DNA of 64,000 nucleotides, taken from the NCBI RefSeq assembly GCF_054482525.1, contig NZ_CM137006.1. One strand, written 5' to 3'. Shown piece after piece: positions 12,519 to 60,696 of this stretch. A program made the translations under genes and the position numbers. Position 1 is the stretch's first letter, and every line of letters begins with the position of its first letter. The notes beneath the pieces were generated by a model. The model was given only the letters and a program-made list of their open reading frames with translations. It was not told where the DNA came from and made no database searches.

Positions 12519-12532
12519 TTGTTCGGTATCAA
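12519..12532 (-). promoter_or_regulatory. FNR site of the dmsA promoter (TTGATACCGAACAA on the minus strand)
   Basis: The reverse complement reads TTGATACCGAACAA, which I recall as the dmsA FNR site; lies upstream of dmsABC. Confidence 0.45.
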
Positions 12533-12540
12533 AGGGAGAC

Positions 12541-12567
12541 AAAAAAAGCGCCCGCAGGCGCTTTTTA
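12541..12567. terminator. Bidirectional hairpin terminator after serS (AGCGCCCGCAGGCGCT flanked by A-run and T-run)
   Basis: Perfect palindrome flanked by AAAAAAA and TTTTT, 20 bp downstream of the serS stop. Confidence 0.6.
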
Positions 12568-12586
12568 GATTCAGAAAAATTGGGTA

Positions 12587-33985: not shown

Positions 33986-36508
33986 TTATGCCGGGAGCTC
34001 CGGGGGGAATGCTTCTTCCAGTCGGTTAACCATATTGCCGAGATGGGATGCATCATATTCCATGACGGGGCGTTGCCTGATGATACTGACCACCAGTGGT
34101 TTGATTAACATATTGGTCGCGGCCCGTTGTTGTATACCGGCGGCGAAAATGATCTCCAGAGCATTCTGATCGATAACACGGGCCAGATTCTCGTTCAGAT
34201 TTTCAATCTCATGTCCGGTCAGCAGGAAACTGCCGGCAAGCCATGTCACCTGCTCCTGAATCATTGCCAGAATTTTGACGCGATCTTCTTCAACCAGCGC
34301 TCCGGCAATTTTTCCTGATACAGCGGAGGCAATCATTCCCCCCAGAACACCGCCAACCACACGTCCTGTCAGTGCACCAAATGGTCCCAGTGGACTGAAC
34401 AATATCCCGCCCGCCACTGACCCGACAGCACCACCTGCCACACCGGAAGATGCCACGGCAAGATTCCTGATGAACTGCGCACCGGAGATCCGTCCCCGCA
34501 ACATTTTGATCATGTCAGGGCCGGTTGTGACAGCTACCAGTGCCAGAGATGTTACCAGCGTACCCTTCATTACTTTGTTCAGGGCACTGATATTTCCTGC
34601 ACCGGTCCCCTTCTGAAGAGCCAGTCGGACAGTCGGGCTGGCAGTCGAAAAATCAATGTGCTTCAGCATACCCTGAACAACACTGAGCCGGTGGAGTTGC
34701 TGGGTTGTGACGTAGACAGCCAGTGTGCGGGTGAAGGTTTTTCCTGCCTGGACAGCAGCTGTCTGCAGGGCAGCATCGCGATCGCCGGTGCTGAGCCAGA
34801 AGACCGATGCCGTCAGGGCAAAACTGATCCCTCCGGCCGCCAGACTGACAACCGAACCCTCGGCAATATCATAAGTGACCGATTCGATGGTCCCGAACCG
34901 GGTGATATTACGGGCCTGAGTATAAGTCAGATGTCCCCGACGAATCAGCCGGGACGCTTCTGCGGGATCGGTTACACCGGGTACTTTACCTTCGCGGATC
35001 TTATTCCTCATGGTTTCAACAGCGCCGGCATACTGATCACGGGGGACTTCCAGTTGCATGGGGCCATTATTTCCCATGTAACGATACTGTCCGTTTTGTC
35101 CGTCGAATGCCGCACCGACGCTACGGGCTGCAGTTGAACAATATTTCGTCTGGATTTCTGTTCCGCTGACCAGTCTGTCTGCTCCATTTCTGGCATTATT
35201 ATCACCGAGGATCCGTGCGTTTTTCAGACGGACTCTGTCGACAATATGGTTTCCCCGTTCAGCGGCAAACCCATGTCCCTGCCCTCCGGAAGCAAACATT
35301 TTCTCATTTGTACTCCAGGTTTCCGGCAGTTTCATGAGAATCAGACCATTCGCCGTTGCATCGGAAATAAAGCTGTTGTAAGGGCGTTCATAAATTTCCT
35401 GACACAGTGTTTCTGTTTCGCGACAAAGAGAGGTGCAGTACCATTCCGGATCCAGCTTATGATTTTCCGGGGCATGATGTACTTCTGTCAGCCCGCAGGA
35501 GGCACAGATACGAAGCTCATCCACGTGATGGAATGATACAAAACGGCGACCTTCTGAAAAGGGATACCAGTCACCGCCGTCCAGGCAACGATCGAGAAAA
35601 TCGTCATTCGCTTCCGGTGATAAATTCAGGCGGTTCCGGAAGAGCGTTTTCAGTTCATCAGGTGTGAATGACAGGTTCTCTTTCAACTGTTCGTTAAACC
35701 CTGCCATGTTTCTTTCATACCAGGCATTGTTCAGTAACCAGTTTCCGTCTGCCAGTTCAAATTCCCTCAGCTCTCCCCGGGAAATCCGTTGAGAAATGAG
35801 CGTCAGCCAGATGCGCTCCGTCAGTGAGTCAGGAAGGCTGTAATCGTTTTGCAAACTGGTCAGCCACGATTTACTGTTGAGCACCGGTTGTTCTTCCAGT
35901 GTCTGGCTGATGGCACAGGTCAGTTTTTTCAGCGCCTGGATCTGGCTGGCCGCCCATAGCAGCGTCACTAATGCAGCCAGCCAGTACAACAACCCGCCCC
36001 ACCACATCAGTGACGGTGAAATATCGTACTGTAACGCGATCAATGGTGCGCATGCAGAACACGCCATAAGGAAAAAGGCAGTATAAAAACAGCAGTAATA
36101 CCCGTTAATTTCCTTGCTGATATCTTCTGGTGTGATCCCGTTCTGCTGAATGTTTTTGATCTGCAGGGGAACAGCCAGCAGACCACCGGCGAGAGCGGTG
36201 GTCAGAATAAATTTCACAGAGTCAAAGGTGTGAGCCTCCAGCGCGATATGTTTACCATCAAGTCCCCACATGAAGCTGATGATCATTCCGGCAATCGTCA
36301 GAAATACGCCTGCCAGCCAGCGAATATGGAACAACCGGGTTATGCGTTCGGTGATATAGCCAGCCAGTAAGGCCGGGCCGAACAGACACAGCAATATGAG
36401 CCCTGCCAGCGCAGAAGCCGTGCTGATTAATGCTCTGAACAAAAGGCGAAGAATGGCAAATCCTGCGATCAGCAGGATCAGCGCGCCGACTATCTGTAAC
36501 ATAGTCAC
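33986..36508 (-). CDS. yeeR: YeeR-like inner-membrane protein (840 aa)
   Basis: Multiple TM segments at N- and C-terminal parts; located between the antirestriction/DUF932 genes and flu as yeeR is in CP4-44. Confidence 0.6.
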   Translation of the reverse strand: MTMLQIVGALILLIAGFAILRLLFRALISTASALAGLILLCLFGPALLAGYITERITRLFHIRWLAGVFLTIAGMIISFMWGLDGKHIALEAHTFDSVKFILTTALAGGLLAVPLQIKNIQQNGITPEDISKEINGYYCCFYTAFFLMACSACAPLIALQYDISPSLMWWGGLLYWLAALVTLLWAASQIQALKKLTCAISQTLEEQPVLNSKSWLTSLQNDYSLPDSLTERIWLTLISQRISRGELREFELADGNWLLNNAWYERNMAGFNEQLKENLSFTPDELKTLFRNRLNLSPEANDDFLDRCLDGGDWYPFSEGRRFVSFHHVDELRICASCGLTEVHHAPENHKLDPEWYCTSLCRETETLCQEIYERPYNSFISDATANGLILMKLPETWSTNEKMFASGGQGHGFAAERGNHIVDRVRLKNARILGDNNARNGADRLVSGTEIQTKYCSTAARSVGAAFDGQNGQYRYMGNNGPMQLEVPRDQYAGAVETMRNKIREGKVPGVTDPAEASRLIRRGHLTYTQARNITRFGTIESVTYDIAEGSVVSLAAGGISFALTASVFWLSTGDRDAALQTAAVQAGKTFTRTLAVYVTTQQLHRLSVVQGMLKHIDFSTASPTVRLALQKGTGAGNISALNKVMKGTLVTSLALVAVTTGPDMIKMLRGRISGAQFIRNLAVASSGVAGGAVGSVAGGILFSPLGPFGALTGRVVGGVLGGMIASAVSGKIAGALVEEDRVKILAMIQEQVTWLAGSFLLTGHEIENLNENLARVIDQNALEIIFAAGIQQRAATNMLIKPLVVSIIRQRPVMEYDASHLGNMVNRLEEAFPPELPA

Positions 36509-36622: not shown

Positions 36623-39469
36623 TCAGAAGGTCACATTCAGTGTGGCCTGACCGTTATACCCTTCAGCGCTGCTGCCGCTGACGCTGTGGGCATAACCGGC
36701 CTGAACGCCCAGGGTGATATTTTCCCGGACACGGGCTTCCAGTCCGGCCTGCAGGTCCAGTGACGTGCCATTCCGGGACGGTGAGAACGTCATGTTACTG
36801 CCGGCTGCGGCTGTACCCATGCTCATGTCTCCCCGGGAGCTGAAGGTGCGGATAACAGAAGGCTGTACCCACCAGTTCACAGGCAGTTCACTCACACCGT
36901 GTTTTGTACTGTCGCGCAGGGTGTCACGGGATGAGGTGCCTTCACCAAAGGTCATATCGTTGTGGCTGCCCAGACGGAAACCGGCACGCACATGTTGTGC
37001 ACTGCCATGCCCGAACTTCACATAACCGGCGTTATCCTGGCCGTCATCCAGGGAAAGTCCCTGCCAGGTATAGTGCAGTTGTGGCTCCAGCATCAGGTTG
37101 TCAGTGATACTGAAGGGCAGACCGGTTTCCAGTGAGCCCAGCCAGCCCCAGCCCCGGGCGCGGAAGTCGTTATTGTCCGATGACGCTTTCATGCTGTGGC
37201 GGGTTCCCTGTGCCACAATGTCAGCCCACAGGCCGGAGGACGTGTGTGTCAGATTCAGGTATCCGCCCAGGCTGCCGGCATCATCCCGGACCGTGCCGGC
37301 GCGGGAACCGTCATCATCCTTAACATCAACGGAAGAATGGCCTGCGGCACCATACACCCCTGTCGTCAGAGACATACCGGCAACCTCTGTTCTCAGCAGG
37401 TCACCCTCCAGACGGACGAAGCCATAGCTGCCGCTGCTTTCCGGCGTGGCTCCACGGGCAATACCGCCGTTGTTATCGTGACCGAGATGACCGCCCTGAA
37501 TGCTGAGACGGACGCTGTTATTTTCACCGTTTACACCGGTCTGATGGCTGCGGGAGCCTGCCAGAATCCGATCATGGTCCATTGCCTGTGTCAGCATGGA
37601 TGTATACAGGGGGACTTCAGCACGATAAGCATTTTCACTGCGCAGGTACCAGTCTTCATCGCTGTCACGGTTCAGGGTGTAGTTAAAGGCGCCGGCCTGA
37701 AGCGGGCGACTCAGGGCAAACGCACCTTCTTCTGTGGTGGCGCCATTCTGTGCATCCACAACCCGGATACCCTGTCCGGAGGTTGCCACCCCGAGGTTAC
37801 TGTTTCCGACATTTGTAAACGCAAGCCAGGTTTTGCCGGTTGCCTGACCACCATTAATCACCAGCTGGTCAGAGGTATTGCTGCCATCAAGGCGAACACG
37901 CATATTGATGGTGCCACCCTGACCGGTGAGGTTACTGGTGGTCAGTTTATGGAACGTTACCGGGGAGTCGCCTTTTGCAACAGCACGGCTCAGCGCGGCA
38001 TCCGGTGTCGTCTGATTATCAAAGCGAATCTCCCCTGCGTTAACAATATCGCCGGTACTGACCACATCGCCATTCAGTACCATGCTGGCACCTTTACTGA
38101 GCTGTGTTCTGCCACTCAGACTTCCCCCGGCAGCCAGCGTCAGTGTTCCACGATGTCCGACAGTGGTGTTGCTGGCCAGTCCTCCGGCATTAACCGTAAA
38201 GCTGCCGCCATTTTCCAGCAGCAGTCCGCTGGCCTGACCGGATGTGCCATCAATACTGAACTTACCGCTGGCATTGGTCCCCTCAACAGTGGCACCACTG
38301 TCTGCAATCAGGGCACTACCGGATGTCATGGTGACATCTGTTGCCTTACCACCGGCAGACACTGCCAGGGTTCCGCCGTCATCCACCCGTGTTTTCCAGG
38401 CTGAATGGCCCTCCAGTACATCCAGGCGACCACCGGACTCCAGAACAACACCGTCAGCATTACCGTTTTCCACAGTGAAATTGCCCAGACGGTTGCTGCC
38501 GGTGACGGTTGCCGCCGTACTGGTGACCAGTGCGCCTCCCTGCTTCAGCGTGACATTCGTGGCTGTACCACCGGCGTTCACCTGCAGTTTGCCTTTCTGG
38601 TTAACGGTGGTGAAATCCGCCAGACCACCTTCCTTGACAATCTGCCAGCCGTCACTGTTCACAACAGTGTCAGAGGCTGTACCGCCGTTGTGCACATACT
38701 GGTTACCGCCGTTCAGTGTGGTATCCAGCGCGTAGCCATGTACAGTCTGGTCGCCGCCGGCATAAACCACAGTGGTATTTGCTGTTCCTTCAGCAGCCAC
38801 AATCTGACGACCATTTTCATTGATAGTGGTACGTACGGCATTTCCGCGAACAAACTGCCCGGTATCACCATTTTCTGCATCCGGTCCCCCTTCCGCGCCG
38901 GTATTCACAACCGTGTCGGTTGCCACTGCGCCGGATTTGATGGCCTGCCAGCCCTTCTCATTAATGACGGTACCCGTTGCAATCCCGCCTTCATGTACCC
39001 ACTGCTCACCGCCGTTCAGAGTGGTATTCACTGCCTGCCCCTGAAGGCTCTGTCCGCCTCCGGCACTGATAACCGTGTCTGAAACGCTTCCTCCGGCATT
39101 CACTCTCTGAAGACCACCACCGGTGACAGTAGTGTTGTTGGCGATACCGCCATTTTGTATCCATTGTCCGCCGGTATTGGCCTCGTTATCCGGCCCATAC
39201 TCCAGACCGGTACTGATGGTCATTCCGTTGGCCGTACCGAAGACAATCTGGTTGTCATGATTTGTCAGTGTTCCGCCGCTCACGGTTTCTCCCGCCTGTA
39301 CGACCGTGTCAGCAGCCAGTACCGGGACTGACGTGACAGCAGCAAGAGACAGCGCAACCGCCACACCGGTGCGTTTTCCCCGTGAGCGCGCCAGTTCGGA
39401 AGCCACCACCAGGGTGCCCGTAATGTGATTCCATACCAGCCTGTAGCTGGTGTTCAGATGTCGTTTCAT
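36623..39469 (-). CDS. flu: Antigen 43 self-associating autotransporter adhesin (948 aa from MKRHLNTSYRLVWNH...)
   Basis: Extended signal peptide MKRHLNTSYRLVWNHITGTLVVASELARSR, GG-rich beta-helix passenger repeats, C-terminal beta-barrel ending ...NGQATLNVTF. Confidence 0.9.
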   Translation of the reverse strand: MKRHLNTSYRLVWNHITGTLVVASELARSRGKRTGVAVALSLAAVTSVPVLAADTVVQAGETVSGGTLTNHDNQIVFGTANGMTISTGLEYGPDNEANTGGQWIQNGGIANNTTVTGGGLQRVNAGGSVSDTVISAGGGQSLQGQAVNTTLNGGEQWVHEGGIATGTVINEKGWQAIKSGAVATDTVVNTGAEGGPDAENGDTGQFVRGNAVRTTINENGRQIVAAEGTANTTVVYAGGDQTVHGYALDTTLNGGNQYVHNGGTASDTVVNSDGWQIVKEGGLADFTTVNQKGKLQVNAGGTATNVTLKQGGALVTSTAATVTGSNRLGNFTVENGNADGVVLESGGRLDVLEGHSAWKTRVDDGGTLAVSAGGKATDVTMTSGSALIADSGATVEGTNASGKFSIDGTSGQASGLLLENGGSFTVNAGGLASNTTVGHRGTLTLAAGGSLSGRTQLSKGASMVLNGDVVSTGDIVNAGEIRFDNQTTPDAALSRAVAKGDSPVTFHKLTTSNLTGQGGTINMRVRLDGSNTSDQLVINGGQATGKTWLAFTNVGNSNLGVATSGQGIRVVDAQNGATTEEGAFALSRPLQAGAFNYTLNRDSDEDWYLRSENAYRAEVPLYTSMLTQAMDHDRILAGSRSHQTGVNGENNSVRLSIQGGHLGHDNNGGIARGATPESSGSYGFVRLEGDLLRTEVAGMSLTTGVYGAAGHSSVDVKDDDGSRAGTVRDDAGSLGGYLNLTHTSSGLWADIVAQGTRHSMKASSDNNDFRARGWGWLGSLETGLPFSITDNLMLEPQLHYTWQGLSLDDGQDNAGYVKFGHGSAQHVRAGFRLGSHNDMTFGEGTSSRDTLRDSTKHGVSELPVNWWVQPSVIRTFSSRGDMSMGTAAAGSNMTFSPSRNGTSLDLQAGLEARVRENITLGVQAGYAHSVSGSSAEGYNGQATLNVTF

Positions 39470-39686
39470 CAGCTTTTCCTTACAGAGGGTGAATAAAAAA
39501 GCCGGTACCCACAAATGTGGATACCGGCAGGTACAAAACAGCATGGTCAGATAAAGTGGTTTTTCCCGGACATAAATGCTTCCCCTCTCTCATCCGCCAG
39601 AGAAGTATCAGTCCGTTGTGTGCAATTCCGTTCTGCATGATGAAGAGATTCAGCTGCCTTTTCGCAGACCATTAACCACTATAAAC

Positions 39687-39722
39687 GATCGATAGCAACG
39701 ATCGATACCTGTTTTATCGATC
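39687..39722 (-). promoter_or_regulatory. agn43 phase-variation switch: three GATC Dam sites (39687, 39700, 39719) within the presumptive OxyR operator
   Basis: aaacGATCgatagcaacGATCgatacctgttttatcGATCg located upstream of flu; triple-GATC architecture is the established Dam/OxyR switch of agn43. Confidence 0.7.
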
Positions 39723-39840
39723 GTTTTATTCTATTAACGACAAGGCGGTCACGCAAGAGAAACAGGAGGAGTATGAGGGGTTTGTGTCATGTTTTCAGTT
39801 GGTTAACGTAATGTTATCAGGCATTTCCCTGGCAGACTGT

Positions 39841-40713
39841 TCAGAAGAAAATCCAGTTCCATACAGCGCGGGCAACAGAGACCACCGTGTCACGGACGGC
39901 ACGCAGAACCGTACGGGCAACAGAGGCAACACAGACGCTCTCCGCCGTGTCAAATATCCGGTCCACCGCACCGGTAAACTGTTCACGGGCCTGAGCGCGG
40001 ACAGATTCCGTGCGCAGCTCGTCCTGCAGGCGGGTCATCAGGGGACTGGCGGCATGGTCGGGAAGTGCTGTCATTAGCGCACTGACCAGCGTATCCAGTT
40101 CCCAGCCGGTGCGGGCCGATACGGCAACAACCGGATGTACGGGCCGGAACAGACGGAATACCGCCTCCGTTTTCTCCCGAATGTTCTGTGCCTGTGCGGG
40201 AGAAGGCTGAATGCCGGCCATATCCCATTCATGGCAGGGCTCCGTTTTGTCGGCCTGCGTCACCACAAACAGCACCTGCTGATGTCCCCGGTGCAGGATG
40301 TGTCGCCAGAAATACTCATCCACAGACAGGGCGCGGTCATCGGCTTTAATCAGCCACAGCACCAGGTCCAGTTCGGGCAGAATGTCACGGTACAGGGCTT
40401 CATACTCTGCATCCCTGTCCCGGCTCTCGCCCACCCCGGGCAGGTCAGTGATAACCATGCTGTGACCATGGCCACTCAGACGGAAGCGCCGTACTTCCCG
40501 GGTGCCGGCGTGAACATCACTGACCGGGGTGACCTCCCCCTGAAACAGTGCATTACAGAGTGAGGATTTACCGGCCCCGCTTTTACCCATAATGCCAATC
40601 ACGGGTTCGTGACTGGTGAGTTTGCGCAGATGTTCCAGGATGTGACGGGAAAGCGAGTAAGGCAGGGAGGAGAGCGGTTTTTCAATTGCCTCAATGGCAT
40701 CAGACGGATTCAT
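39841..40713 (-). CDS. yeeP: YeeP/YfjP/YkfA-family GTPase (about 290 aa)
   Basis: P-loop GIMGKSGAGKSSLCNALF, DLPGVGES G3-like motif; start taken at MNPSD within ORF 39841-40752. Confidence 0.75.
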   Translation of the reverse strand: MNPSDAIEAIEKPLSSLPYSLSRHILEHLRKLTSHEPVIGIMGKSGAGKSSLCNALFQGEVTPVSDVHAGTREVRRFRLSGHGHSMVITDLPGVGESRDRDAEYEALYRDILPELDLVLWLIKADDRALSVDEYFWRHILHRGHQQVLFVVTQADKTEPCHEWDMAGIQPSPAQAQNIREKTEAVFRLFRPVHPVVAVSARTGWELDTLVSALMTALPDHAASPLMTRLQDELRTESVRAQAREQFTGAVDRIFDTAESVCVASVARTVLRAVRDTVVSVARAVWNWIFF

Positions 40714-41286
40714 ACATGTATTCCCGGTGAAAAAAGACAAAACCCCGCGCACCGGAAAAGTGGCGGGGGACTCACGGAGATAATATCTGCCTAAAATTAT
40801 TTGGAATGCAGGTATATGCAGCTAATTTGTATCGGCTCATTAGTACAGAACTAAACCTCATCTGACAGTCCGCTCTGTGCCAGGAGCAGACATTGCCAAC
40901 GTTATGACCCTCGATTACATCAAAGAGCCCTATAGCCGAAACCTGCACCATAGCCATCTCTGTAGAATTCGTCCTAGGGGCTTTTAACAGACCTAGTTGT
41001 ATGGAGCGGAAGGAAATATTAAAGCTCAAGGCGTCAGTCCAGTGCTGTCCTGTTTGCTTACCACACGAAAGAGTGCTGCTTGTACCTGCTAACTAATGGT
41101 ATGCGGAGTGAGGGGGGCGGGTAGAACCAAAAGCACTTACTACGTGTGGCGCTCTCCTGGAAGAGGAGACGTCGAAGTGATAACGCTAACAACAGTCTTA
41201 CTGGTGATGCAAATAATGCTAGCTGGTCTGGTTGCCATCAAGCAACTGACTGGACGCCCGTAAGGGATGGAGGAACTTGATTAAAG

Positions 41287-41316
41287 GCAGGGGGGTTACC
41301 TCCCCTGCCTTTTTTC
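41287..41316 (+). terminator. Strong Rho-independent terminator (GGCAGGGG...CCCCTGCC + TTTTTT) ending a plus-strand transcript upstream of gene 41379
   Basis: 8-bp GC-rich stem with short loop followed by a T-run; plus-strand orientation only. Confidence 0.65.
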
Positions 41317-41378
41317 GTTTCTGCGCAAGTTAGCTCTGTTATTATAATCCTTACTCACACTGTAAGGACATAGTTCAA

Positions 41379-42062
41379 ATGACTGAATGGCTTAATGCAC
41401 ATTTTGGTGCAGACGCAGCTACCTATCTTAGCTTATTAGTCGGCGTACTGGCACTGTTTGGTATTGGGGGCGGTGTTACATATAGAATCAGACAGCAAAA
41501 CAACATAAAACAGAAGGCAAAGAAAACCGAGGGTGATGTGAACCAGGCCGGGCGGGATATTAATCAGACCACCAACGTTTACCACACATCCAATGAATCT
41601 ACTGAGGACCCTGTAAAAAAAAAGCAAGATGAACATGATCTGAAGATAATCGACCAGATCCTTGAATTGCTGCCTTATGAGGATACTACTCAATGGGTTG
41701 AGCAGAGCTACCTGAGCGGTATACGGCAAGATGTTTGCTTAAACATTGAAAAAGCTGAAAAATTTAGCGGTGAAAAGTATCGGTTATTCAATACTGAAGT
41801 GAATGGTGCGAAAGACGCTTTTTTGGACGCTATGACCGCATACGTAGATAGTACGCTACCATTTATGAGTGTTGATTACCCGAACAGAAAGCCAGTGATG
41901 CTAAGCCTTCCCCATGACTGGAAGAGTAAGAGTGTTGAATCGGAGGCAAACTTCCGCTTTCATCAGCAAAATGTGCGTGAAACATCGGGGGGGATGATTG
42001 CGCGCTATGAGGATTTTGTCAGGACATTTAAGGCTCATGGATTCATAAGCGATAAACTGTAA
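41379..42062 (+). CDS. Hypothetical N-terminally membrane-anchored protein (227 aa)
   Basis: ATG preceded by AAGGA and a TATAAT -10 box at 41343-41348; one predicted TM helix (YLSLLVGVLALFGIGGGV); own terminator downstream; no recognised domain. Confidence 0.6.
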   Translation: MTEWLNAHFGADAATYLSLLVGVLALFGIGGGVTYRIRQQNNIKQKAKKTEGDVNQAGRDINQTTNVYHTSNESTEDPVKKKQDEHDLKIIDQILELLPYEDTTQWVEQSYLSGIRQDVCLNIEKAEKFSGEKYRLFNTEVNGAKDAFLDAMTAYVDSTLPFMSVDYPNRKPVMLSLPHDWKSKSVESEANFRFHQQNVRETSGGMIARYEDFVRTFKAHGFISDKL

Positions 42063-45374: not shown

Positions 45375-47813
45375 ATGGCTATCAAAAAAACCGAACTCTA
45401 TTCTTCCCTGTGGGCAAGCTGCGACGAACTGCGTGGCGGGATGGACGCCAGCCAGTACAAAGACTATGTACTGACCCTGCTGTTTATGAAGTACGTTTCC
45501 GATAAGTATAAAGGCGATCCTTACGGGATGATCGTGATACCCAAAGGAGCCAGCTTTGACGATATGGTTGCGCTGAAAAATGACAAAGAGATCGGCGACA
45601 AAATCAACAAAATCATCCACAAGCTGGCGGAAGAGAACGGCCTGAAGGGCGTCATCGACGAAGCCGACTTTAACGACGAAGATAAGCTCGGCAAAGGCAA
45701 GGAAATGATTGACCGCCTGAGCAAGCTTGTCGGTATCTTTGAAGGGTTAAATCTCTCCAGCAACCGGGCCGAAGGCGACGATCTGCTGGGCGATGCCTAT
45801 GAATATCTGATGCGTCACTTCGCAACCGAATCCGGTAAGAGTAAAGGGCAGTTTTACACTCCAGCGGAGGTGTCACGTATTCTGGCGAAGGTGATTGGTA
45901 TTACTCCCGATACTCCGCAAGATGCAACGGTTTATGACCCAACCTGTGGCTCTGGTTCGCTGCTGTTGAAAGTGAATGATGAAGCCCGGCGCGGACTGTC
46001 GATTTTCGGCCAGGAGATGGATAACGCTACCAGTGCGCTGGCGCGGATGAACATGATTCTGCATAACAATGCCACCGCGAAAATCTGGCAGGGCAATACG
46101 CTGAGCGATCCGCAGTGGAAAGAGGCGAACGGCAAACTGAAAGCCTTCGATTTTGCCGTGGCGAACCCGCCTTTTTCCAATAAAAACTGGACCAACGGGC
46201 TGACGCCGAAAAAAGATCCGTTTGAACGCTTCGGCTGGGGTATTCCGCCGGAAAAAAACGGCGATTATGCTTTTTTGTTGCATATCATTAAAAGCCTGAA
46301 AAGTACCGGCAAAGGCGCGGTGATCCTGCCCCACGGCGTACTGTTTCGCGGTAACGCCGAAGCGAATATCCGTGAAAATCTAATCAAGCAGGGCTATATC
46401 AAAGGCGTTATTGGTTTGCCAGCCAACCTGTTTTACGGCACCGGCATCCCGGCGTGCATCATTGTGATTGATAAAGAGCACGCCCACAGCCGCAAAGGCA
46501 TTTTTATGATCGACGCCAGCCGGGGCTTTATCAAAGATGGCAACAAGAACCGCCTGCGTAGCCGAGATATTCACCGCATTGTGGACGTGTTCAACCATCA
46601 GCGAACGGTACCTGGCTACAGCCGGATGGTGCCCTCCAGCGAGATCGCCGGAAATGATTACAACCTGAATATTCCTCGCTATATCGAGAGCGGCGAGCCG
46701 GAAGATTTACACGATCTGACCGCGCACTTACAGGGCGGTATTCCGGCACGCGATGTGGATGCTTTGCAAGATTACTGGCGGGTATTCCCTGCCCTGCGCA
46801 ACGTGCTGTTTGCTGACGACCGTCCCGGTTACTGTCGGGCGCAGGTGAACGCGCAACAGGTGAAACCGACCATTCTGGCGCATCAGGAGTTTAAGGATTT
46901 TGCCACCCGCAGCCTGCTACCGTTTAAAGCGTGGGTGAAAGAGGCAAGTCTGGAAGAGATTCGCAAAGGTGATAAACCCAAAGCGCTAATCCACGATATC
47001 AGCGAAATGCTATTGGCGCAGTACGCCAACAGTGAGTTGCTGAACAAATACAGCGTGTACCAGATCCTGATGGATTACTGGACTGATGTCATGCAAGACG
47101 ATGTGTATGCGATTATGCAGGATGGCTGGCAAGCCGCCGCGCAAATCCGCGAGCTTCAGCCGGTGAAAGGCAAAGATGGCAAAAACATCTGGAAAGAAAC
47201 GCACGATTTCGAGTTTACCAAACGGCGCTACAAGGCCGATGTGCTGCCCCGTTCGCTGGTGGAAATTCGCTGTTTCCCGGAACTGCTGGATGCGCTGAAC
47301 CGCGCGCAGGAGCGCAGTGAAGAAGCCAGTCGTCAGCTAGTGGAATTCATCGAGGAGCAGGCAGGTGAAGAGGATCTGCTGGCCGAGGCGAAGAACGATA
47401 AAGATAAGGTGACGCAAAAGCTGGTGAATGCCCGTCTAGCACAGTTAAAGAAAACCACTGCCGGCCCAGATGAGCTGGCAGTGCTGAACCGCTGCCTGGC
47501 GCTAATTAAGGCCGAAGCCAGTGCGAAAAAAGCGCTGAAAGCCGCACAAGAAGCGCTGGATCGGGCGGTGTTTAAACATTATCCCACGCTGGATGAAGCA
47601 GCGATTAAAACGCTGGTAGTGCAGGATAAGTGGCTGGCAACGTTGCAGGCAGGGATCAAGGCGGAGATTGAGCGTATTACCCAGCAACTGGCGTCGCGCG
47701 TAAAGGAGCTGGAAGAGCGTTATGCTGAACCGTTGCTAGCGCTTGAAGCCTCCGTTGAGGCGTTGAGCGAGAAAGTGGCCGAGCATTTGCGGGCGATGGG
47801 GCTGGAGTGGTGA
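45375..47813 (+). CDS. hsdM: Type I restriction-modification methyltransferase subunit HsdM, unusually long (812 aa) with a C-terminal coiled-coil-like extension
   Basis: AdoMet motif DPTCGSGSLL and catalytic NPPF (VANPPFSNKNW) in the first ~470 aa; last ~300 aa are Ala/Glu/Lys-rich helical. Confidence 0.88.
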   Translation: MAIKKTELYSSLWASCDELRGGMDASQYKDYVLTLLFMKYVSDKYKGDPYGMIVIPKGASFDDMVALKNDKEIGDKINKIIHKLAEENGLKGVIDEADFNDEDKLGKGKEMIDRLSKLVGIFEGLNLSSNRAEGDDLLGDAYEYLMRHFATESGKSKGQFYTPAEVSRILAKVIGITPDTPQDATVYDPTCGSGSLLLKVNDEARRGLSIFGQEMDNATSALARMNMILHNNATAKIWQGNTLSDPQWKEANGKLKAFDFAVANPPFSNKNWTNGLTPKKDPFERFGWGIPPEKNGDYAFLLHIIKSLKSTGKGAVILPHGVLFRGNAEANIRENLIKQGYIKGVIGLPANLFYGTGIPACIIVIDKEHAHSRKGIFMIDASRGFIKDGNKNRLRSRDIHRIVDVFNHQRTVPGYSRMVPSSEIAGNDYNLNIPRYIESGEPEDLHDLTAHLQGGIPARDVDALQDYWRVFPALRNVLFADDRPGYCRAQVNAQQVKPTILAHQEFKDFATRSLLPFKAWVKEASLEEIRKGDKPKALIHDISEMLLAQYANSELLNKYSVYQILMDYWTDVMQDDVYAIMQDGWQAAAQIRELQPVKGKDGKNIWKETHDFEFTKRRYKADVLPRSLVEIRCFPELLDALNRAQERSEEASRQLVEFIEEQAGEEDLLAEAKNDKDKVTQKLVNARLAQLKKTTAGPDELAVLNRCLALIKAEASAKKALKAAQEALDRAVFKHYPTLDEAAIKTLVVQDKWLATLQAGIKAEIERITQQLASRVKELEERYAEPLLALEASVEALSEKVAEHLRAMGLEW

Positions 47814-49147
47814 TGGTGGATTTAATGGTGAATGAGCAACGGTCGAGTACGGCGGGGAAAGATGTGCCTGCGGGGTATAAACTGACTGAGGTGGGCGTGA
47901 TTCCTGAGGATTGGGATTGCGTACCATTTGGTAATCTGTTTAAAACAAACACAAAGAAAAAAAAAGTCAGCGATTATGAGCTAGTTTCATTTATTGGGAT
48001 GCAAGATGTTAGTGAAGATGCACAATTAAAAAATAATACTCAACTTCCTTTTAAAGAAGTTAAAAGTGGTTTTACTTACTTTGAAAAAGGGGATGTTTTA
48101 TTAGCTAAAATAACCCCTTGTTTTGAAAATGGAAAAGGATGTCATACCGCTGATTTACCTACTAATGTAGGTTTTGGGAGTACGGAATTTCATGTATTAA
48201 GGGAAAATGAAGACTCCGATTCTCGCTTCATCTATTTTTGGACAACTGATAAAAAATTCAGAGCATCACTGGAATCTGAAATGGTGGGAAGTGCGGGACA
48301 CCGTCGTGTGCCGCTAGTTGCTATAGAAAAATATTTGATTCCATGTCCCCCAAATTTGCAAGAGCAAAGTGCTATTGCTGATTCATTATCTGATATTAAT
48401 AATTTTATTCTAGCTCTAGAAAAGCTTATCGTTAAAAAACAAGCCATTAAAACCGCTACTATGCAGCGACTACTGACTGGTAAAACCCGTTTGCCACAGT
48501 TTGCGTTGCGCAAAGATGGCTCTGCTAAGGGATATAAAAAGAGCGAGTTGGGGGAGATTCCTGAAGATTGGAATTGTATTAATCTTGGTGAGCTAGGTAA
48601 TTGCATTATTGGGTTAACTTACAAACCTGAAGATACATCTGATTATGGTACATTGGTATTACGCTCATCCAACATTCAAAATAATCACTTAGCTTATGAT
48701 GATAACGTCTTCGTCAGCATAGAACCACCTGAGCGCACAATTGTGAAAGAAGGTGATATCTTGGTATGTGTAAGAAATGGCAGTCGCCAACTTATTGGCA
48801 AATGCGCATTAATTGACAAAAATGCGCAGGGCTCAGCATTCGGTGCATTTATGTCAGTATTCCGAACTGATATATATGGATTTACATTTCACCAATTCCA
48901 GTCTGATATTATTCAAAAGCAAATCGCTGAAGTTATGGGTGCCACTATCAATCAGATAACTAACAAAGATATGTTGGGCTTTAAAATCCCATTACCTGAA
49001 AATACAGAAGAACAAGCCGCCATCGCCGCCATCCTCTCCGATATGGACAAGGAAATCCAGATCCTGCAACAGCGTCTGGACAAAACCCGCCAGCTTAAGC
49101 AAGGGATGATGCAGGAACTGTTAACCGGGAAAATCCGCTTAATATAG
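47813..49147 (+). CDS. hsdS: Type I restriction-modification specificity subunit HsdS (two AT-rich target-recognition domains)
   Basis: Conserved central and C-terminal repeats (…LLTGKTRLPQF… and …QELLTGKIRLI) flanking two variable AT-rich domains; ATG overlaps the hsdM stop (ATGA). Confidence 0.85.
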   Translation: MVDLMVNEQRSSTAGKDVPAGYKLTEVGVIPEDWDCVPFGNLFKTNTKKKKVSDYELVSFIGMQDVSEDAQLKNNTQLPFKEVKSGFTYFEKGDVLLAKITPCFENGKGCHTADLPTNVGFGSTEFHVLRENEDSDSRFIYFWTTDKKFRASLESEMVGSAGHRRVPLVAIEKYLIPCPPNLQEQSAIADSLSDINNFILALEKLIVKKQAIKTATMQRLLTGKTRLPQFALRKDGSAKGYKKSELGEIPEDWNCINLGELGNCIIGLTYKPEDTSDYGTLVLRSSNIQNNHLAYDDNVFVSIEPPERTIVKEGDILVCVRNGSRQLIGKCALIDKNAQGSAFGAFMSVFRTDIYGFTFHQFQSDIIQKQIAEVMGATINQITNKDMLGFKIPLPENTEEQAAIAAILSDMDKEIQILQQRLDKTRQLKQGMMQELLTGKIRLI

Positions 49148-49159
49148 AAGGGAAAGCAC

Positions 49160-49816
49160 ATGGCTTATGATTACAGCGCCAGCCTCAACCCGCAAAAAGC
49201 TCTGATCTGGCGTATCGTCCATCGGGACAATATCCCGTGGATTCTGGATAACGGGCTGCACTGCGGCAACAGTCTGGTGCAGGCGGAAAACTGGATCAAT
49301 ATCGGCAACCCGGAGCTGATCGGCAAGCGTGCCGGGCATCCGGTACCTGTCGGAACGGGCGGGACACTGCATGACTATGTGCCGTTTTATTTTACCCCCT
49401 TCTCGCCAATGCTGATGAACATCCACAGCGGGCGCGGCGGCATTAAGCAACGCCCCAATGAGGAGATCGTTATTCTGGTCAGCAACTTGCGAAACGTGGC
49501 AGCACACGACGTACCCTTCGTGTTTACCGACAGCCATGCTTACTATAACTGGACCAACTACTACACCAGTCTGGATAGTCTGGACCAGATCGACTGGCCC
49601 ATTTTGCAGGCACGGGACTTTCGCCGCGATCCAGACGATCCGGCTAAATTTGAACGCTATCAGGCAGAGGCGCTAATCTGGCAACACTGCCCGATCTCTC
49701 TGCTGGATGGGATAATTTGTTACAGCGAAGAGGTCAGGTTACAATTAGAACAATGGCTGTTTCAGCGTAATCTAACAATGTCCGTTCACACACGGGCTGG
49801 ATGGTACTTCTCATGA
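49160..49816 (+). CDS. darT: DarT-like DNA ADP-ribosyltransferase toxin (DUF4433, 218 aa)
   Basis: [38 protein letters not shown]... matches E. coli DarT as I recall it; followed by a macrodomain gene with overlapping stop/start. Confidence 0.8.
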
Positions 49817-50880
49817 TCACATATACACAAGGCAATTTACTGGACGCACCGGTGGAAGCTCTGGTGAATACGGTTAATACCGTCGGTGTCATGGGGAAAG
49901 GCATCGCGTTGATGTTTAAAGAGCGCTTCCCCGAAAATATGAAAGTCTATGCCCTCGCCTGCAAACAAAAGCAGGTGATCACCGGCAAAATGTTCATTAC
50001 CGAAACCGGGGAACTGATGGGACCGCGCTGGATTGTTAATTTTCCGACCAAACAGCACTGGCGCGCTGATTCCCGCATGGAGTGGATTGAAGATGGCTTG
50101 CAGGACTTACGCCGCTTTTTGATTGAAGAGAACGTGCAGTCCATCGCCATTCCACCACTGGGCGCAGGCAACGGTGGTTTGAACTGGCCGGACGTTCGGG
50201 CGCAGATTGAATCTGCCCTTGGCGACCTTCAGGACGTTGATATCCTGATTTACCAACCGACTGAAAAATACCAGAACGTTGCCAAAAGCACTGGCGTAAA
50301 AAAGCTCACTCCCGCCAGAGCCGCCATCGCTGAACTGGTGCGTCGCTACTGGGTATTGGGGATGGAGTGCAGCCTACTGGAAATCCAGAAACTGGCCTGG
50401 CTGTTACAACGCGCCATTGAGCAGCATCAACAGGACGATATCCTCAAACTGCGGTTTGAAGCTCACTATTATGGCCCCTATGCGCCCAATCTGAACCATC
50501 TGCTTAATGCGCTGGACGGCACCTATCTTAAAGCCGAGAAACGCATCCCGGACAGCCAACCGCTGGATGTGATCTGGTTTAACGATCAGAAAAAAGAACA
50601 CGTTAATGCGTATCTGAACAACGAAGCCAGAGAGTGGCTACCTGCGCTGGAGCAGGTCAGCCAGTTAATTGACGGCTTTGAATCGCCGTTTGGTCTGGAG
50701 TTGCTGGCAACCGTAGACTGGTTGCTGAGCCGTGGCGAATGTCAACCAACGCTGGATTCCGTTAAGGAAGGGCTGCACCAGTGGCCTGCGGGCGAACGCT
50801 GGGCCAGCCGTAAGTTGAGGCTGTTTGATAATAATAATCTGCAATTTGCCATTAACCGCGTAATGGAGTTCCATTGCTGA
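49813..50880 (+). CDS. darG: DarG-like macrodomain antitoxin (about 355 aa; alternative start at 49801)
   Basis: N-terminal macrodomain [39 protein letters not shown]; ATG overlaps the darT stop (ATGA). Confidence 0.8.
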
Positions 50881-50898
50881 GGGTTTAAGGAGCGCCTT

Positions 50899-53800
50899 TT
50901 GAGTACCGTGGGCCAGCGCGAACGCGCCACACAGCAGCGTCTGATTCAGTTTTTTGTTGAAGATTTAGGTTACCGCCATCTGAGTCACCGCACCGGGTAC
51001 ACCGGGAACAGCAACATCGACACTAATATACTGAGCGCGTGGCTAAAACGGCGCGGCGTTAATGATACGTTGATCACCCGGGCGTTGCGGCAACTGGATT
51101 CCGCCGCCGCTCTGGGCGAAGGCAAAAAACTCTATTACGCCAATAAAGAGGTCTATCGCCTGCTGCGTTACGGCGTGAAAGACAAAGAAGGCGCAGGCGA
51201 GCAGAACCAAACCGTGTGGCTGATTGACTGGGCCAACCCACAAGCCAATGATTTCGCCATCGCCGATGAGGTGACGGTCAAAGGCGAGTACTGCAAGCGC
51301 CCGGATCTGGTGCTGTACGTTAACGGCATTGCGCTGGGCGTGATTGAACTTAAGCGTTCGTCAGTGCACGTCAGCGAAGGCATCCGGCAGAATCTCGATA
51401 ATCAAAAGAAAACCTTTATCCGCGATTTCTTCACCACTATGCAGTTAGTGATGGCGGGCAACGATACGCAGGGCCTGCGCTACGGCACCATCGAAACCCC
51501 GGAAAAATACTATCTGGAGTGGAAAGAAGATAATCCAGGCGACTATACACATAAACTCGACTTTCATTTAAGTCGTCTGTGTAGCAAATCCAGGCTGTTG
51601 GATATCGTCCATAATTACATTGCCTTTGATGTCGGGGTGAAAAAACTCTGCCGCCATAATCAGTTCTTCGGCGTCGAGGCGGCTAAACAACATATTGCCC
51701 GTCGTGAAGGCGGTATTATCTGGCACACACAGGGATCGGGTAAAAGCCTGACGATGGTCTGGCTGGCGAAGTGGATCCGTGAAAATGTGCCAAACTCCCG
51801 CGTGTTGATTGTGACTGACCGCACCGAACTGGATGAACAGATCGAAAGCGTGTTTATGGGCGTGAATGAAGATATTTATCGCACCTCCAGCGGCAACGAT
51901 CTTATCGCAACGCTCAATCATCCTAACCCGTGGCTCATTTGCTCGCTGGTGCATAAATTTGGTCGTCGCAGCGAAGCTGAAGACAATGCGGCTACCGACG
52001 CCTTTATCACCGAATTACAGCAGTCCCTGACGAAAACATTCCGCGCCAAAGGCGATCTGTTTGTTTTTGTGGACGAGTGCCACCGCACACAATCCGGCAA
52101 GCTGCATAACGCCATGACTGCCATTCTGCCGGACGCCCTGTTTATCGGTTTTACCGGCACACCGCTGATGAAGAAAGATAAGAAGAAGTCGGTTGAGGTG
52201 TTCGGCCCTTATATCCATACCTATAAATTTGATGAAGCGGTGGCCGACGGTGTGGTGCTGGATCTGCGCTACGAGGCACGCGATATTGACCAGTATCTGA
52301 CATCAGAGAAAAAGGTCGATGACTGGTTTGAAGCCAAGACTCGCGGTTTGTCGAATTTAGCCAGGACCCAGCTTAAGCAAAAGTGGGGATCAATGCAGAA
52401 GCTGCTCTCCAGCAAGTCGCGGCTGGAGCAGATCGTTAACGACATTTTGCTGGATATGGATACCCGTCCACGCCTGATGGACGGGCGCGGCAACGCCATG
52501 CTGGTATGCAGCAGTATCTATCAAGCCTGCAAGGTTTACGAGATGTTCAGCCAGACCGAGCTGGCAGGAAAAGTAGCGATTGTGACCAGCTATCGCCCCG
52601 ATGCCGCCAGCATCAAAGGCGAAGAAACGGGCGAAGGGTTAACGGAGAAACTCTCTAAACACGCCACCTATCGTAAAATGTTGGCTGACTATTTTGAACA
52701 AAGTGAAGAGAAGGCCGCCGCACGCATTACCGAGTTCGAGCGGGAAATGAAACAGCGTTTTATTGAAGAGCCGGGGCAAATGCGCCTGCTTATCGTGGTG
52801 GATAAGCTGCTGACTGGCTTTGACGCGCCGTCCGCCACCTATCTCTACATTGATAAAACCATGACCGACCATACGCTGTTTCAGGCGATTTGTCGGGTGA
52901 ACCGGCTGGACGGTGAGGATAAAGAGTATGGCTATATTATCGATTATAAAGATCTGTTCCGTTCGCTGGATAAAGCGATTACCGATTACACCACGGGCGC
53001 GTTTGATGATTACGATCGGGACGATGTGGCCGGGTTGCTGAAAGACAGGCTGGAGCAGGCGCAACTGGATCTCGACAGCGCGCTGGAGATGGTTCGCAGC
53101 TTATGTGAACCCGTCAAAACCCCGCGCAGCCTGCTGGACTATCAGCACTATTTTTGCGGTGAATCAGGAGAGAATCAGACTTCGTTAAACGAAAAAGAGG
53201 CGCTGCGCCTGACATTTTACCAGTGCGTCGCCCGTCTGCTACGCGCTTATGCCAGCATCGCCAATGAAATGCCGGAAGCAGGCTACACTGCCGAAGAGGT
53301 AGAGAGCATTCGCGCCGAAGTCGCTGAATTCGAAAAACTGCGCTATGAGATTAAGCTGACCAGCGGCGATCTTCTGGATATGAAGCGCTTTGAACCCGCT
53401 ATGCGTCATTTACTGGATATGTATGTTCGCGCCGATGGTAGCGAAGTGCTGATGGATTTTGAAGAGTTAAGTCTGATTGAACTGATTGTCGAGAAAGGCT
53501 TGGCGGCGACCGTCGCCCTGCCGGATGATATCCGTAATAATCAGGATGCGATGGCGGAAACCATCGAAAACAACGTGCGCAAAACCATCGTGGATGAAAA
53601 CCCGGTTAACCCAAAATACTATGGACGCATGTCGCAGCTGCTGGATGAACTGATTACCCTTCGCCGACAAAATGCGCTCAATTATCAGCAGTATCTGGAA
53701 CGTATCCGCGATTTGTGTAAACAGGTCATCCGCCCGGAGCAAACCGCCGGAGCGTGCTACCCTGCCACCATGGATACACAAGCAAAGCGCGCCTTCTATG

Positions 53801-53994
53801 ATAACTTCGGCCACGACGAGGTACTGGCGACCCGCATAGATACGACGATTCGCTATACCAAAAGGGCAGAGTGGATTGGCGATCGTTTTAAAGAACGGGA
53901 AATTGCCAACGCATTACGTGAAGAGACCGCCAGCTATAATATTGATATTGATGAGGTGATAGCGCTTGCCCGTCAGCAGAAGGAATATCACTGA
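50899..53994 (+). CDS. hsdR: Type I restriction enzyme endonuclease/helicase subunit HsdR (1031 aa, TTG start after AAGGAG)
   Basis: Helicase motif I HTQGSGKSLTMV, motif II LFVFVDECHRTQSG; size typical of HsdR. Confidence 0.88.
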   Translation: MSTVGQRERATQQRLIQFFVEDLGYRHLSHRTGYTGNSNIDTNILSAWLKRRGVNDTLITRALRQLDSAAALGEGKKLYYANKEVYRLLRYGVKDKEGAGEQNQTVWLIDWANPQANDFAIADEVTVKGEYCKRPDLVLYVNGIALGVIELKRSSVHVSEGIRQNLDNQKKTFIRDFFTTMQLVMAGNDTQGLRYGTIETPEKYYLEWKEDNPGDYTHKLDFHLSRLCSKSRLLDIVHNYIAFDVGVKKLCRHNQFFGVEAAKQHIARREGGIIWHTQGSGKSLTMVWLAKWIRENVPNSRVLIVTDRTELDEQIESVFMGVNEDIYRTSSGNDLIATLNHPNPWLICSLVHKFGRRSEAEDNAATDAFITELQQSLTKTFRAKGDLFVFVDECHRTQSGKLHNAMTAILPDALFIGFTGTPLMKKDKKKSVEVFGPYIHTYKFDEAVADGVVLDLRYEARDIDQYLTSEKKVDDWFEAKTRGLSNLARTQLKQKWGSMQKLLSSKSRLEQIVNDILLDMDTRPRLMDGRGNAMLVCSSIYQACKVYEMFSQTELAGKVAIVTSYRPDAASIKGEETGEGLTEKLSKHATYRKMLADYFEQSEEKAAARITEFEREMKQRFIEEPGQMRLLIVVDKLLTGFDAPSATYLYIDKTMTDHTLFQAICRVNRLDGEDKEYGYIIDYKDLFRSLDKAITDYTTGAFDDYDRDDVAGLLKDRLEQAQLDLDSALEMVRSLCEPVKTPRSLLDYQHYFCGESGENQTSLNEKEALRLTFYQCVARLLRAYASIANEMPEAGYTAEEVESIRAEVAEFEKLRYEIKLTSGDLLDMKRFEPAMRHLLDMYVRADGSEVLMDFEELSLIELIVEKGLAATVALPDDIRNNQDAMAETIENNVRKTIVDENPVNPKYYGRMSQLLDELITLRRQNALNYQQYLERIRDLCKQVIRPEQTAGACYPATMDTQAKRAFYDNFGHDEVLATRIDTTIRYTKRAEWIGDRFKEREIANALREETASYNIDIDEVIALARQQKEYH

Positions 53995-59769: not shown

Positions 59770-60620
59770 CTGTCTTCGGTATTTTGGCGCAAAAAACTAT
59801 GTGATATTTACAGTTCCATCGGGTGTGCGCTAAGCTCTTTTCGTTCCCCATTGGGACCCCCTTTTGATTTCTTGTTTGACACTTGCAGTTGCCAGACCGC
59901 AAGGTGTTTTAACAAATCAAAAGGGGTTTTAATAACTGGCTCAAAGCTGAAAGCTTTCCGGAACCCCCAGCCTAGCTGGGAGTTTTCTGTGCACAAAAAA
60001 ACCCTGTAAAAAACTTACAGGGGTATAAGGCTTAGCCTAACTTGCGTCTGTTGCATGGTGCCGGGTGCCTCCCGGTGAATTCAGTCGGTGTCACTGAACC
60101 CGCGTAGGCTTCGCTCATAACATAATAAATGCTATGTACACCAGTCGCCCCACCGCACAGGGGGATTCACCACACGGCGCACTTTTTAACAAATATCCCT
60201 CCGGCCAGACAATAATAAACATAATGAATTGTGATCTTCTTAACAGTTTTAAAGTGTTACAGATAACATGCCAAGTAATTGCTTGTTTTTTCATCAATAG
60301 GAAGACCACACCAACAACCCCAGCTATCAGCCAGAACCGACATTATCCGGCTGATAAAATCTACCATCACTCCAACACCAATCACCGCCTGTGCCAGATC
60401 GCGTTTCTCAAACTTTTTAATCTCTGTTGCCACTCTGCGGGTTTTCTTTTTGAATTTTGAAAATACCAAATATCGTGACGTTTCTTTGGGGGATGAGCTA
60501 TCAAGCGGGAACGATCTGCCTACAGAGAAAGTCAGCCAGACCACTCTGCAAATTATCCCCGAAAGGCTCTGTGGCTGATATGCGCCGGGCATGGCGCAAT
60601 GGGCCAGTGGCAGTGTGTGA

Positions 60621-60696
60621 TGGTGGCCCTTACTGGATTTGAACCAGCGACCAAGCGATTATGAGTCCTCTTACCACTGAGCTAAAGGGTTGGAGA
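60621..60696 (-). pseudogene. Degenerate tRNA-like sequence (CAU anticodon loop, tRNA-Ile2/Met-like 3' part with intact T-arm and CCA; disrupted acceptor stem)
   Basis: Minus strand reads ...AGCTCAGTGGTAAGAGGACTCATAATCGCTTGGTCGCTGGTTCAAATCCAGTAAGGGCCACCA; first two acceptor-stem pairs are mismatched and the anticodon stem looks shortened. Confidence 0.5.

Follow-up and report, generated by a model that had tools for sequence, protein, structure and literature searches.

A predicted agn43-type Dam/OxyR phase-variation switch upstream of an island-borne Ag43/Cah gene of Escherichia coli

The intergenic region upstream of an Ag43/Cah-family autotransporter gene was analyzed within a 64-kb stretch of E. 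coli DNA (the window, meaning the whole of that stretch). Judged from its sequence, the region carries an epigenetic ON/OFF switch of the agn43 type with a probability of roughly 0.85, and the copy in the window is probably phase-variable. An earlier note on this DNA had proposed that the agn43 switch architecture is reproduced here, and the proposal was supported: the −10 hexamer, the GATC spacing, the two predicted OxyR half-sites with their register (16/20), the start position placed by homology and the terminator hairpin of the leader all match K-12. The recognition is correct but ordinary, because the copy has all the sequence features that are known to be important in the agn43 switch; the switch is an already known element and no new mechanism is involved.

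Genomic context

The tRNA and protein-coding genes around the switch were as follows.

27453..27540, plus strand: tRNA-Ser(GGA), serW, island boundary, adjoining infA-aat-cydCD
33456..33910, minus strand: irmA, frameshifted (pseudogene), split into ORFs 33674-33910 and 33456-33677
33986..36502, minus strand: yeeR-like gene, in the place it holds between agn43 and irmA in AH65, CFT073 and EC958
36623..39469, minus strand: Ag43/Cah-family autotransporter gene, full-length, 948 aa (NCBIfam NF033177)
39470-39840: intergenic region with the switch, 371 nt
39841..40713, minus strand: yeeP-like GTPase gene, the last of the upstream transcription unit

The Ag43/Cah gene lies within an enclosing ORF of 36623..39544, with the conserved start at ATG 39469 (MKRHLNTSYR...). 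Its product matched the NCBIfam model NF033177 ('Ag43/Cah family autotransporter adhesin') with 1986 bits against a cut-off of 1200, over profile positions 1-948 of 948. The GATC sites had been described as lying upstream of flu, which is right when the region is read on the minus strand, and the gene that follows them is a full-length Ag43/Cah gene. Co-transcription of an agn43-yeeR-irmA operon and its repression by OxyR were demonstrated in EC958 (PMC4807369). In the window the switch probably drives the same three genes, with irmA frameshifted.

The Ag43 gene was found within a CP4-44-type island attached to the tRNA-Ser gene serW, so its description in the earlier note as island-borne holds. 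The island (27446-59840) is 99.9% identical to an island at serX in strain AH65, where the IrmA-family gene is also annotated as frameshifted. serX was considered as the site of the present island and rejected: by BLAST the match to AH65 stops 7 nt past the tRNA, and the tRNA was assigned to serW because it is flanked by infA-aat-cydCD. The Ag43 module is common to this island and to PAI-CFT073-serX. The dam and oxyR genes lie outside the window. Both proteins are very likely encoded by the host, since the DNA of the window is that of E. coli and each gene is present in 5425 of 5426 complete E. coli genomes.

Promoter, start site and predicted OxyR operator

The elements of the switch and leader are listed in the direction of transcription, all on the minus strand.

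39751..39756: putative −35 hexamer TTGCGT (3/6), read from the sequence, 17 nt upstream of the −10 hexamer
39750-39734: promoter spacer, 17 nt
39728..39733: −10 hexamer TAGAAT, read from the sequence, identical in K-12, CFT073 and EC958
39720..39734: predicted OxyR half-site A, ATAGAATAAAACGAT, 8/10 of the consensus, overlapping the −10 hexamer and GATC-I, identical in K-12
39719..39722: Dam site GATC-I, with transcription predicted to start (+1) at its G (39722)
39703..39719: spacer of 17 nt separating the two half-sites, CGATAAAACAGGTATCG; this stretch of the switch is divergent and defines the Cah-type subtype
39700..39703: GATC-II (Dam site), +20 to +23, invariant in 14 alleles
39688..39702: predicted OxyR half-site B, ATCGTTGCTATCGAT, 8/10 of the consensus, spanning GATC-II and GATC-III
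39687..39690: GATC-III (Dam site), +33 to +36, invariant in 14 alleles
39470..39722: untranslated leader, IsrC-like, 253 nt (Rfam RF00124)
39491..39528: terminator-like hairpin, GCCGGTATCCAC-ATTT-GTGGGTACCGGC, then the T-run TTTTTTATTC, just before the ribosome-binding site
39477-39481: ribosome-binding site AAGGA

The promoter was placed by homology and from the start sites known for related copies; a consensus promoter scan of 39400-39900 called no promoter. The position of the −35 hexamer reads TTGTCC in K-12. In the window this hexamer lies just beyond 39740, the end coordinate given in the earlier note.

The isrC annotation of K-12 begins at the G of GATC-I. In EC958, 5' RACE placed the start of the agn43-yeeR-irmA mRNA 228 bp ahead of the ATG of agn43 (PMC4807369). 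The GI-pheV copy of that strain has the G of its GATC-I at exactly this distance from the ATG, 228 nt upstream, which makes this G the 5' RACE site. By homology, transcription in the window is predicted to start at 39722, the G of GATC-I. Numbered from that start, the GATCs would be at +1, +20 and +33, with the predicted operator extending from −12 to +35 (39734-39688). Bound OxyR would be expected to repress, because the operator overlaps the −10 hexamer and the start site.

Candidate OxyR sites were scored against the consensus half-site ATAGnTnnnAnCTAT, taken from PMC2909390. As a control, the canonical oxyR/oxyS site was recovered with 16/20 at a spacing of 7 nt. In the window and K-12 alike, ATAGnTnnnAnCTAT was best arranged as a pair of half-sites separated by 17 nt, with one shared register and a score of 16/20. 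This was the top site of that arrangement on both strands of the 64-kb window, the runner-up scoring 14. A canonical site with the 7-nt spacing of oxidised OxyR (ATAGnTnnnAnCTAT-N7-ATAGnTnnnAnCTAT) was rejected for the switch, its score of 13/20 being at background with 34 such sites in the window; the corresponding score in K-12 agn43 was 14/20. The spacer of the window also lacks the central half-site-like element of K-12, ATCTATTTTATCGAT (7/10). A spacing of 17 nt equals 7 nt plus one helical turn, and such spacing was assigned to reduced OxyR in gtr (PMC2909390).

K-12-type and Cah-type regulatory subtypes

The copies compared fell into two regulatory subtypes. The K-12-type was found in K-12, at serX of CFT073 (agn43b) and in EC958 GI-pheV, with a −35 hexamer TTGTCC, a leader of 222-228 nt and an AT-rich spacer, for example ATCTATTTTATC. 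The Cah-type was found in the window, O157 cah, Nissle 1917, EC958 GI-selC and EC958 GI-leuX, with a −35 hexamer TTGCGT, the spacer GATAAAACAGGTATC and a leader of 253 nt. The literature has already noted three similarly spaced GATCs for both agn43 allele groups. Among 5,426 complete E. coli genomes, 3,460 contained a 111-nt Cah-type core, at 5,103 places in all, and the subtype was estimated to occur in about 3,300-3,500 of the 5,426. The 55-nt switch was identical in 939 genome records, with 2,248 more at 95-99% identity.

Published experiments on OxyR bear on these subtypes unevenly. Deletion of oxyR in CFT073, EC958 and 83972 derepressed IrmA, and in EC958 it raised agn43 mRNA, as detected by qPCR for one or more of the three copies, 121-fold (PMC4807369). 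EC958 carries three Ag43-family copies (in GI-pheV, in GI-selC and in GI-leuX), two of them Cah-type, and the irmA-linked copies tested for OxyR in EC958 (GI-pheV) and CFT073 (serX) are K-12-type. For Cah-type copies, including cah, the accessible literature yielded general statements only; neither a direct Dam/OxyR test nor methylome data were found in it. The accessible OxyR experiments concern K-12-type copies only, and testing the widespread Cah-type directly would fill a gap that is minor but genuine.

A switch that is present but unlike the K-12 model was weighed as the first alternative. The Cah-type spacer, −35 hexamer and longer leader would then alter the affinity or binding mode of OxyR, and the copy could be strongly biased, effectively locked, or bound by reduced OxyR only and sensitive to oxidative stress. 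The window does differ from the tested K-12-type copies in all three respects (spacer; TTGCGT vs TTGTCC; 253 vs 222-228 nt), it lacks the central half-site-like element, its 7-nt-spaced score is at background, and the consensus scan gave no promoter call. However, all consensus-specified OxyR positions and the three GATCs are identical to K-12, and the differences in the spacer fall at positions that are not specified by the consensus. The subtype is also near-unchanged at thousands of places, in ∼3,300-3,500 of the 5,426 genomes, which fits a working element. An altered switch was judged improbable on this balance. A related suggestion, held less firmly than the portable cassette described at the end of this paper, is that the Cah-type, lacking the central half-site-like element, might bind reduced OxyR only; if so, the switch would be sensitive to oxidative stress.

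Leader

In the leader region, Rfam RF00124 (IS102/IsrC) matched 39488-39724 on the minus strand and scored 73.4 bits, the gathering score being 46. Identity to K-12 was unevenly distributed, with 79% in the operator (−12 to +35), 94% from the hairpin to the ATG and 48-57% in the segments between and upstream; the middle part of the leader was 48% identical. Control of flu through antitermination of IsrC is described in a passage of PMC5389530 that cites Wallecha 2014.

The GATC cluster might on these grounds be taken mainly to serve an independent IsrC-like small-RNA gene and not the control of flu. The RF00124 match on the minus strand is above the gathering score, the terminator-like hairpin would end the RNA 22 nt before the ATG, and isrC is annotated as an ncRNA in K-12. 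Such an RNA would nevertheless complement the switch and not substitute for it, as the small RNA and the flu mRNA share promoter and start site; and between the subtypes it is the operator and the hairpin that are conserved, with identity falling to 48% in mid-leader. An independent small-RNA function of the cluster was therefore considered very unlikely.

GATC cluster and conservation across alleles

The three GATCs reported by the earlier note within 36 bp inside 39640-39740 were found there, at 39687, 39700 and 39719. The cluster measures exactly 36 bp and lies 218-253 nt upstream of the Ag43/Cah ATG at 39469. Between 37570 and 41637 no GATC occurs other than these three. Over the whole 64-kb window 237 GATCs were observed against 236 expected from shuffles, so GATC is not enriched. 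Clustering alone is not significant, because uniform placement would give ∼1.55 clusters of three GATCs in 36 bp per 64 kb, and another cluster of this kind was found at 10318-10333. The exact geometry GATC-N15-GATC-N9-GATC occurred once in the window against 0.01 expected (100 shuffles).

The spacing of the window GATCs (19/13 nt, start to start) is identical to that of K-12 flu. A MAFFT register against the K-12 upstream region was rejected; it placed a 13-nt gap within the switch and made the GATC spacing seem different. In an ungapped alignment anchored on TAGAAT the spacing is identical, and the window and K-12 have in common TAATAGAATAAAACGATC, 15 nt, GATCGTT, 3 nt and ATCGATCG. Other Dam-dependent layouts were looked for. 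The pap-type Lrp/Dam layout has two GATCs ∼102 bp apart in two sets of Lrp sites (as cited in PMC2909390); from 37570 to 41637 just the three GATCs within 36 bp were present. The gtr/opvAB-type layout has four paired GATCs and alternative OxyR positions upstream of the promoter, and here three GATCs and one site were found.

Ten alleles of E. coli were collected by BLAST or direct look-up (including K-12, CFT073 agn43b, O157:H7 cah, Nissle 1917 and SMS-3-5). A frameshifted copy in GIMC1409 was added, together with four loci obtained by a pattern scan of one genome per species. All collected alleles except GIMC1409 had GATCs at the same three positions; in GIMC1409 the spacer has an insertion of 1 nt, a T of half-site A is replaced by A, and the Ag43 gene is frameshifted. 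In the 14 alleles without GIMC1409, variation was seen at 0/20 consensus-specified against 16/27 unspecified positions (Fisher p = 9e-6), a test that is partly confounded, the register having been picked after scoring and many specified positions coinciding with GATCs or the −10 hexamer, and that is partly circular for the three non-E. coli loci and a MAG contig, where the retrieval pattern fixed some specified positions. The ten E. coli alleles alone gave 0/20 specified against 15/27 unspecified positions (p = 2e-5). Their flanks were variable at 30/40 columns upstream and 32/40 downstream. Inside the half-sites variation was confined to the 'n' positions of the consensus, where the central 'nnn' of half-site B read GCT, TAT, ATC, GTC, ACT, ACC, TCT or ATT among the alleles; most of the site's variable columns were in the 17-nt spacer.

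A chance group of GATCs, or AT-rich palindromes acting solely as the terminator of the yeeP-like GTPase gene, would agree with the ∼1.5 such clusters expected per window and with the palindromes flagged by a terminator scan (39686-39704, minus; 39697-39725, plus), but it is effectively refuted and least likely of all the readings, given the position-for-position homology to the characterized K-12 switch, an exact geometry expected 0.01 times, conservation that tracks the OxyR consensus and not stem pairing, and stems that are AT-rich with no good T-run after them.

Proposed mechanism

The preferred reading, an agn43-type switch, follows the published ON/OFF mechanism of agn43 (PMC3764049, PMC13337833, PMC4872104, PMC2909390). 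In K-12, agn43 expression is heritably and reversibly ON or OFF, with dam mutants fixed in the OFF state and oxyR mutants in the ON state. For the copy in the window we infer OxyR binding, its block by methylation, the start site and switching from the resemblance to these characterized copies.

A sigma-70 promoter (−35 TTGCGT at 39756-39751, −10 TAGAAT at 39733-39728) would start transcription at 39722 on the minus strand. A single OxyR operator from −12 to +35 would place half-site A over the −10 hexamer and GATC-I, and half-site B over GATC-II and GATC-III. In the OFF state OxyR would occupy unmethylated DNA, blocking transcription and shielding all three GATCs from Dam. In the ON state methylation of the three GATCs would exclude OxyR and leave the promoter active. 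Replication would yield hemimethylated DNA, on which Dam and OxyR would compete; with this competition recurring at each replication, either state would usually be inherited and now and then flipped. The transcript would begin with the 253-nt IsrC-like leader, whose terminator hairpin may act as a second control point, and would read on through agn43 and, probably, through yeeR and the frameshifted irmA as well.

For annotation, the Ag43/Cah gene of the window, and probably yeeR too, is best treated as phase-variable. Data on expression, aggregation, biofilm formation or vaccine antigens obtained from single colonies of strains with this island can therefore mislead, a pitfall described in PMC3764049.

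Comparison with known switches

The K-12 agn43 (flu) switch was described by Henderson & Owen 1999, Haagmans & van der Woude 2000, Waldron 2002 and Wallecha 2002 (as cited in PMC3764049 and PMC13337833). The window resembles it in the −10 hexamer, the 19/13 GATC spacing, both half-sites with their register and the start position, and likewise in the leader terminator hairpin, the ribosome-binding site, the place immediately behind a yeeP-like GTPase gene and the location in a CP4-44-type element. It differs in the −35 hexamer (TTGTCC in K-12, TTGCGT in the window), at several of the 17 spacer positions, and in the length of the leader (222 nt in K-12, 253 nt in the window, with the middle ∼48% identical). 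The K-12 Ag43 protein has 1039 aa, whereas that of the window is a 948-aa Cah-class variant, and the K-12 element is CP4-44 itself, whereas that of the window lies at tRNA-Ser serW.

EC958 GI-pheV and CFT073 PAI-serX share with the window an order of genes comprising the GTPase, the switch, Ag43, yeeR, irmA, DUF905, DUF932, antirestriction, RadC and YeeU/CbtA, and their operators have the same half-sites. They differ in a K-12-type spacer and a leader of 224-228 nt, and it is the irmA of the window that is frameshifted. The closest regulatory matches were EC958 GI-selC and GI-leuX, which differ only in the 'nnn' of half-site B; unlike the window, these two copies are not accompanied by yeeR-irmA. 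The cah gene of O157:H7 has the Cah-type −35 hexamer, spacer and 253-nt leader, but the 'nnn' of its half-site B is TAT and not GCT, and its island and strain background are different.

Competition of Dam with OxyR at OxyR half-sites that contain GATC is also known from Salmonella gtr (P22) and opvAB (PMC2909390, PMC4856963). In gtr the GATCs form pairs 13 nt apart in one half-site, at −110 (GATC1) and −97 (GATC2) and at −46 (GATC3) and −33 (GATC4), which is the design of GATC-II and GATC-III in the window (PMC2909390). In the gtr system there are four GATCs and three half-sites, and OxyR, with two alternative positions, is both activator and repressor, whereas the window has three GATCs and one predicted, repress-only site over −10 and +1. 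The phage Mu gene mom, compared by description only, is also under OxyR and Dam control; it differs in gene and context, and phase variation was not established for it (both points from PMC2909390).

Related cassette in Citrobacter and Enterobacter

Tentatively, and with the odds judged to be somewhat against it, the block that runs from −35 to about +36 could be viewed as a portable cassette for phase variation, belonging to a cargo slot behind the yeeP-like GTPase gene of CP4-44-type islands and not to agn43 as such. In E. coli two leaders follow this block, the K-12-type of 222-228 nt and the Cah-type of 253 nt, and their middle parts are little alike. The cassette stands before different cargo, and homologues of one cargo protein (154 aa) occur elsewhere without it; it thus appears mobile between cargo genes. 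If the suggestion is true, the Citrobacter and Enterobacter genes described here would be new Dam/OxyR phase-variable loci outside E. coli.

In the pattern scan Citrobacter braakii, C. amalonaticus and Enterobacter wuhouensis were found to carry the cassette, with the same −10 hexamer, the same three GATCs and the same predicted OxyR site (16/20). There too it lies behind a yeeP-like GTPase gene. The Ag43 gene is absent, and the cassette is ∼95 nt upstream of genes for signal-peptide proteins of 154 aa and 157 aa, which matched no Pfam or NCBIfam family and were not IrmA-like by BLASTP. Homologues of the 154-aa protein at other loci (E. coli TC24, a metagenome contig and an Enterobacter hormaechei-type locus) are encoded behind a YafY/DeoR-like regulator, with no GATC upstream. 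In Citrobacter and Enterobacter the genes for the 154-aa and 157-aa proteins are followed by DUF932, antirestriction, RadC and CbtA genes.

Switch cassette without Ag43 outside E. coli

An agn43-type promoter/operator cassette was located in Citrobacter braakii ATCC 51113, and also in Enterobacter wuhouensis (locus L012) and C. amalonaticus (locus L014). The C. braakii locus was placed as follows.

L011 3977-5147, minus strand: agn43-type promoter/operator cassette locus

At all three loci the cassette carries three GATCs at 19/13 spacing with an OxyR site of 16/20, is preceded by a yeeP-like GTPase gene and is followed, ∼95 nt downstream, by a pair of small proteins with signal peptides, of 154 and 157 aa, neither of which was assigned a Pfam/NCBIfam family. 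The Ag43 gene is absent from L011, L012 and L014. Homologues of the 154-aa protein at L019 (E. coli TC24), L026 and L027 have no GATC upstream. The three Citrobacter and Enterobacter loci may thus be new non-E. coli cases of Dam/OxyR phase variation, and are listed here as candidates.

Island and attachment site

The island at window 27446-59840 was 99.9% identical to an island of strain AH65, which is attached at serX, beside ghrA and csg. Genes along the window copy were as follows.

27453-27540: tRNA-Ser gene, here serW, beside infA-aat-cydCD
∼45375-53994: type I restriction-modification operon (hsdM-hsdS-hsdR)
within ∼45375-53994, between hsdS and hsdR: darT-darG toxin-antitoxin pair
within ∼45375-53994, after these genes: M48 peptidase gene

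The serW and serX genes are identical, and the same island stands at serX in AH65 and at serW in the window; thus either of two identical tRNA-Ser(GGA) genes is occupied by it. The region at ∼45375-53994, with gene identities (hsd, darT-darG, M48) transferred from the AH65 annotation, is a composite defence locus on the same island as the Ag43 switch.

GATC distribution

Within the island, GATC is absent from a 5.3-kb stretch after the tRNA gene (28078-33339) and from a 2.1-kb stretch (37574-39686) that takes in two-thirds of the Ag43 gene, counted from its 5′ end. These long stretches fit the report that GATC is under-represented in mobile elements (PMC4659465) and, given the flanking GATC-free stretch, the switch stands as an isolated GATC cluster. 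Elsewhere in the window, three GATCs fall inside 36 bp only once, at 10318-10336 (GATC at 10318, 10329 and 10333), where the 19/13 geometry is not present.

Rfam matches at window 12439-12573 and 59861-60205 were to STnc130 on the plus strand, and to STnc490 and STnc100 on the minus strand adjoining a frameshifted IS200 transposase gene. A further match, at 60624-60691, was tRNA-like and weak (30.7 bits), with no ARAGORN call there.

Ag43 copies of EC958, and a decayed copy in GIMC1409

E. coli EC958 has three Ag43-family genes (L020 36210, L022 38934 and L025 2269) of two regulatory subtypes.

GI-pheV copy: K-12-type, with yeeR-irmA
GI-selC copy: Cah-type, without yeeR-irmA
GI-leuX copy: Cah-type, without yeeR-irmA

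Expression values published for 'agn43' in EC958 may therefore combine more than one copy.

In the window, irmA (33456-33910, minus strand) is frameshifted, and is annotated likewise in the near-identical AH65 island. The switch and Ag43 gene of E. coli GIMC1409 (L003) appear to have decayed jointly: a 1-nt insertion in the spacer gives a GATC spacing of 20/13, half-site A has a T-to-A change (AAAGAAT) and the Ag43 gene is frameshifted.
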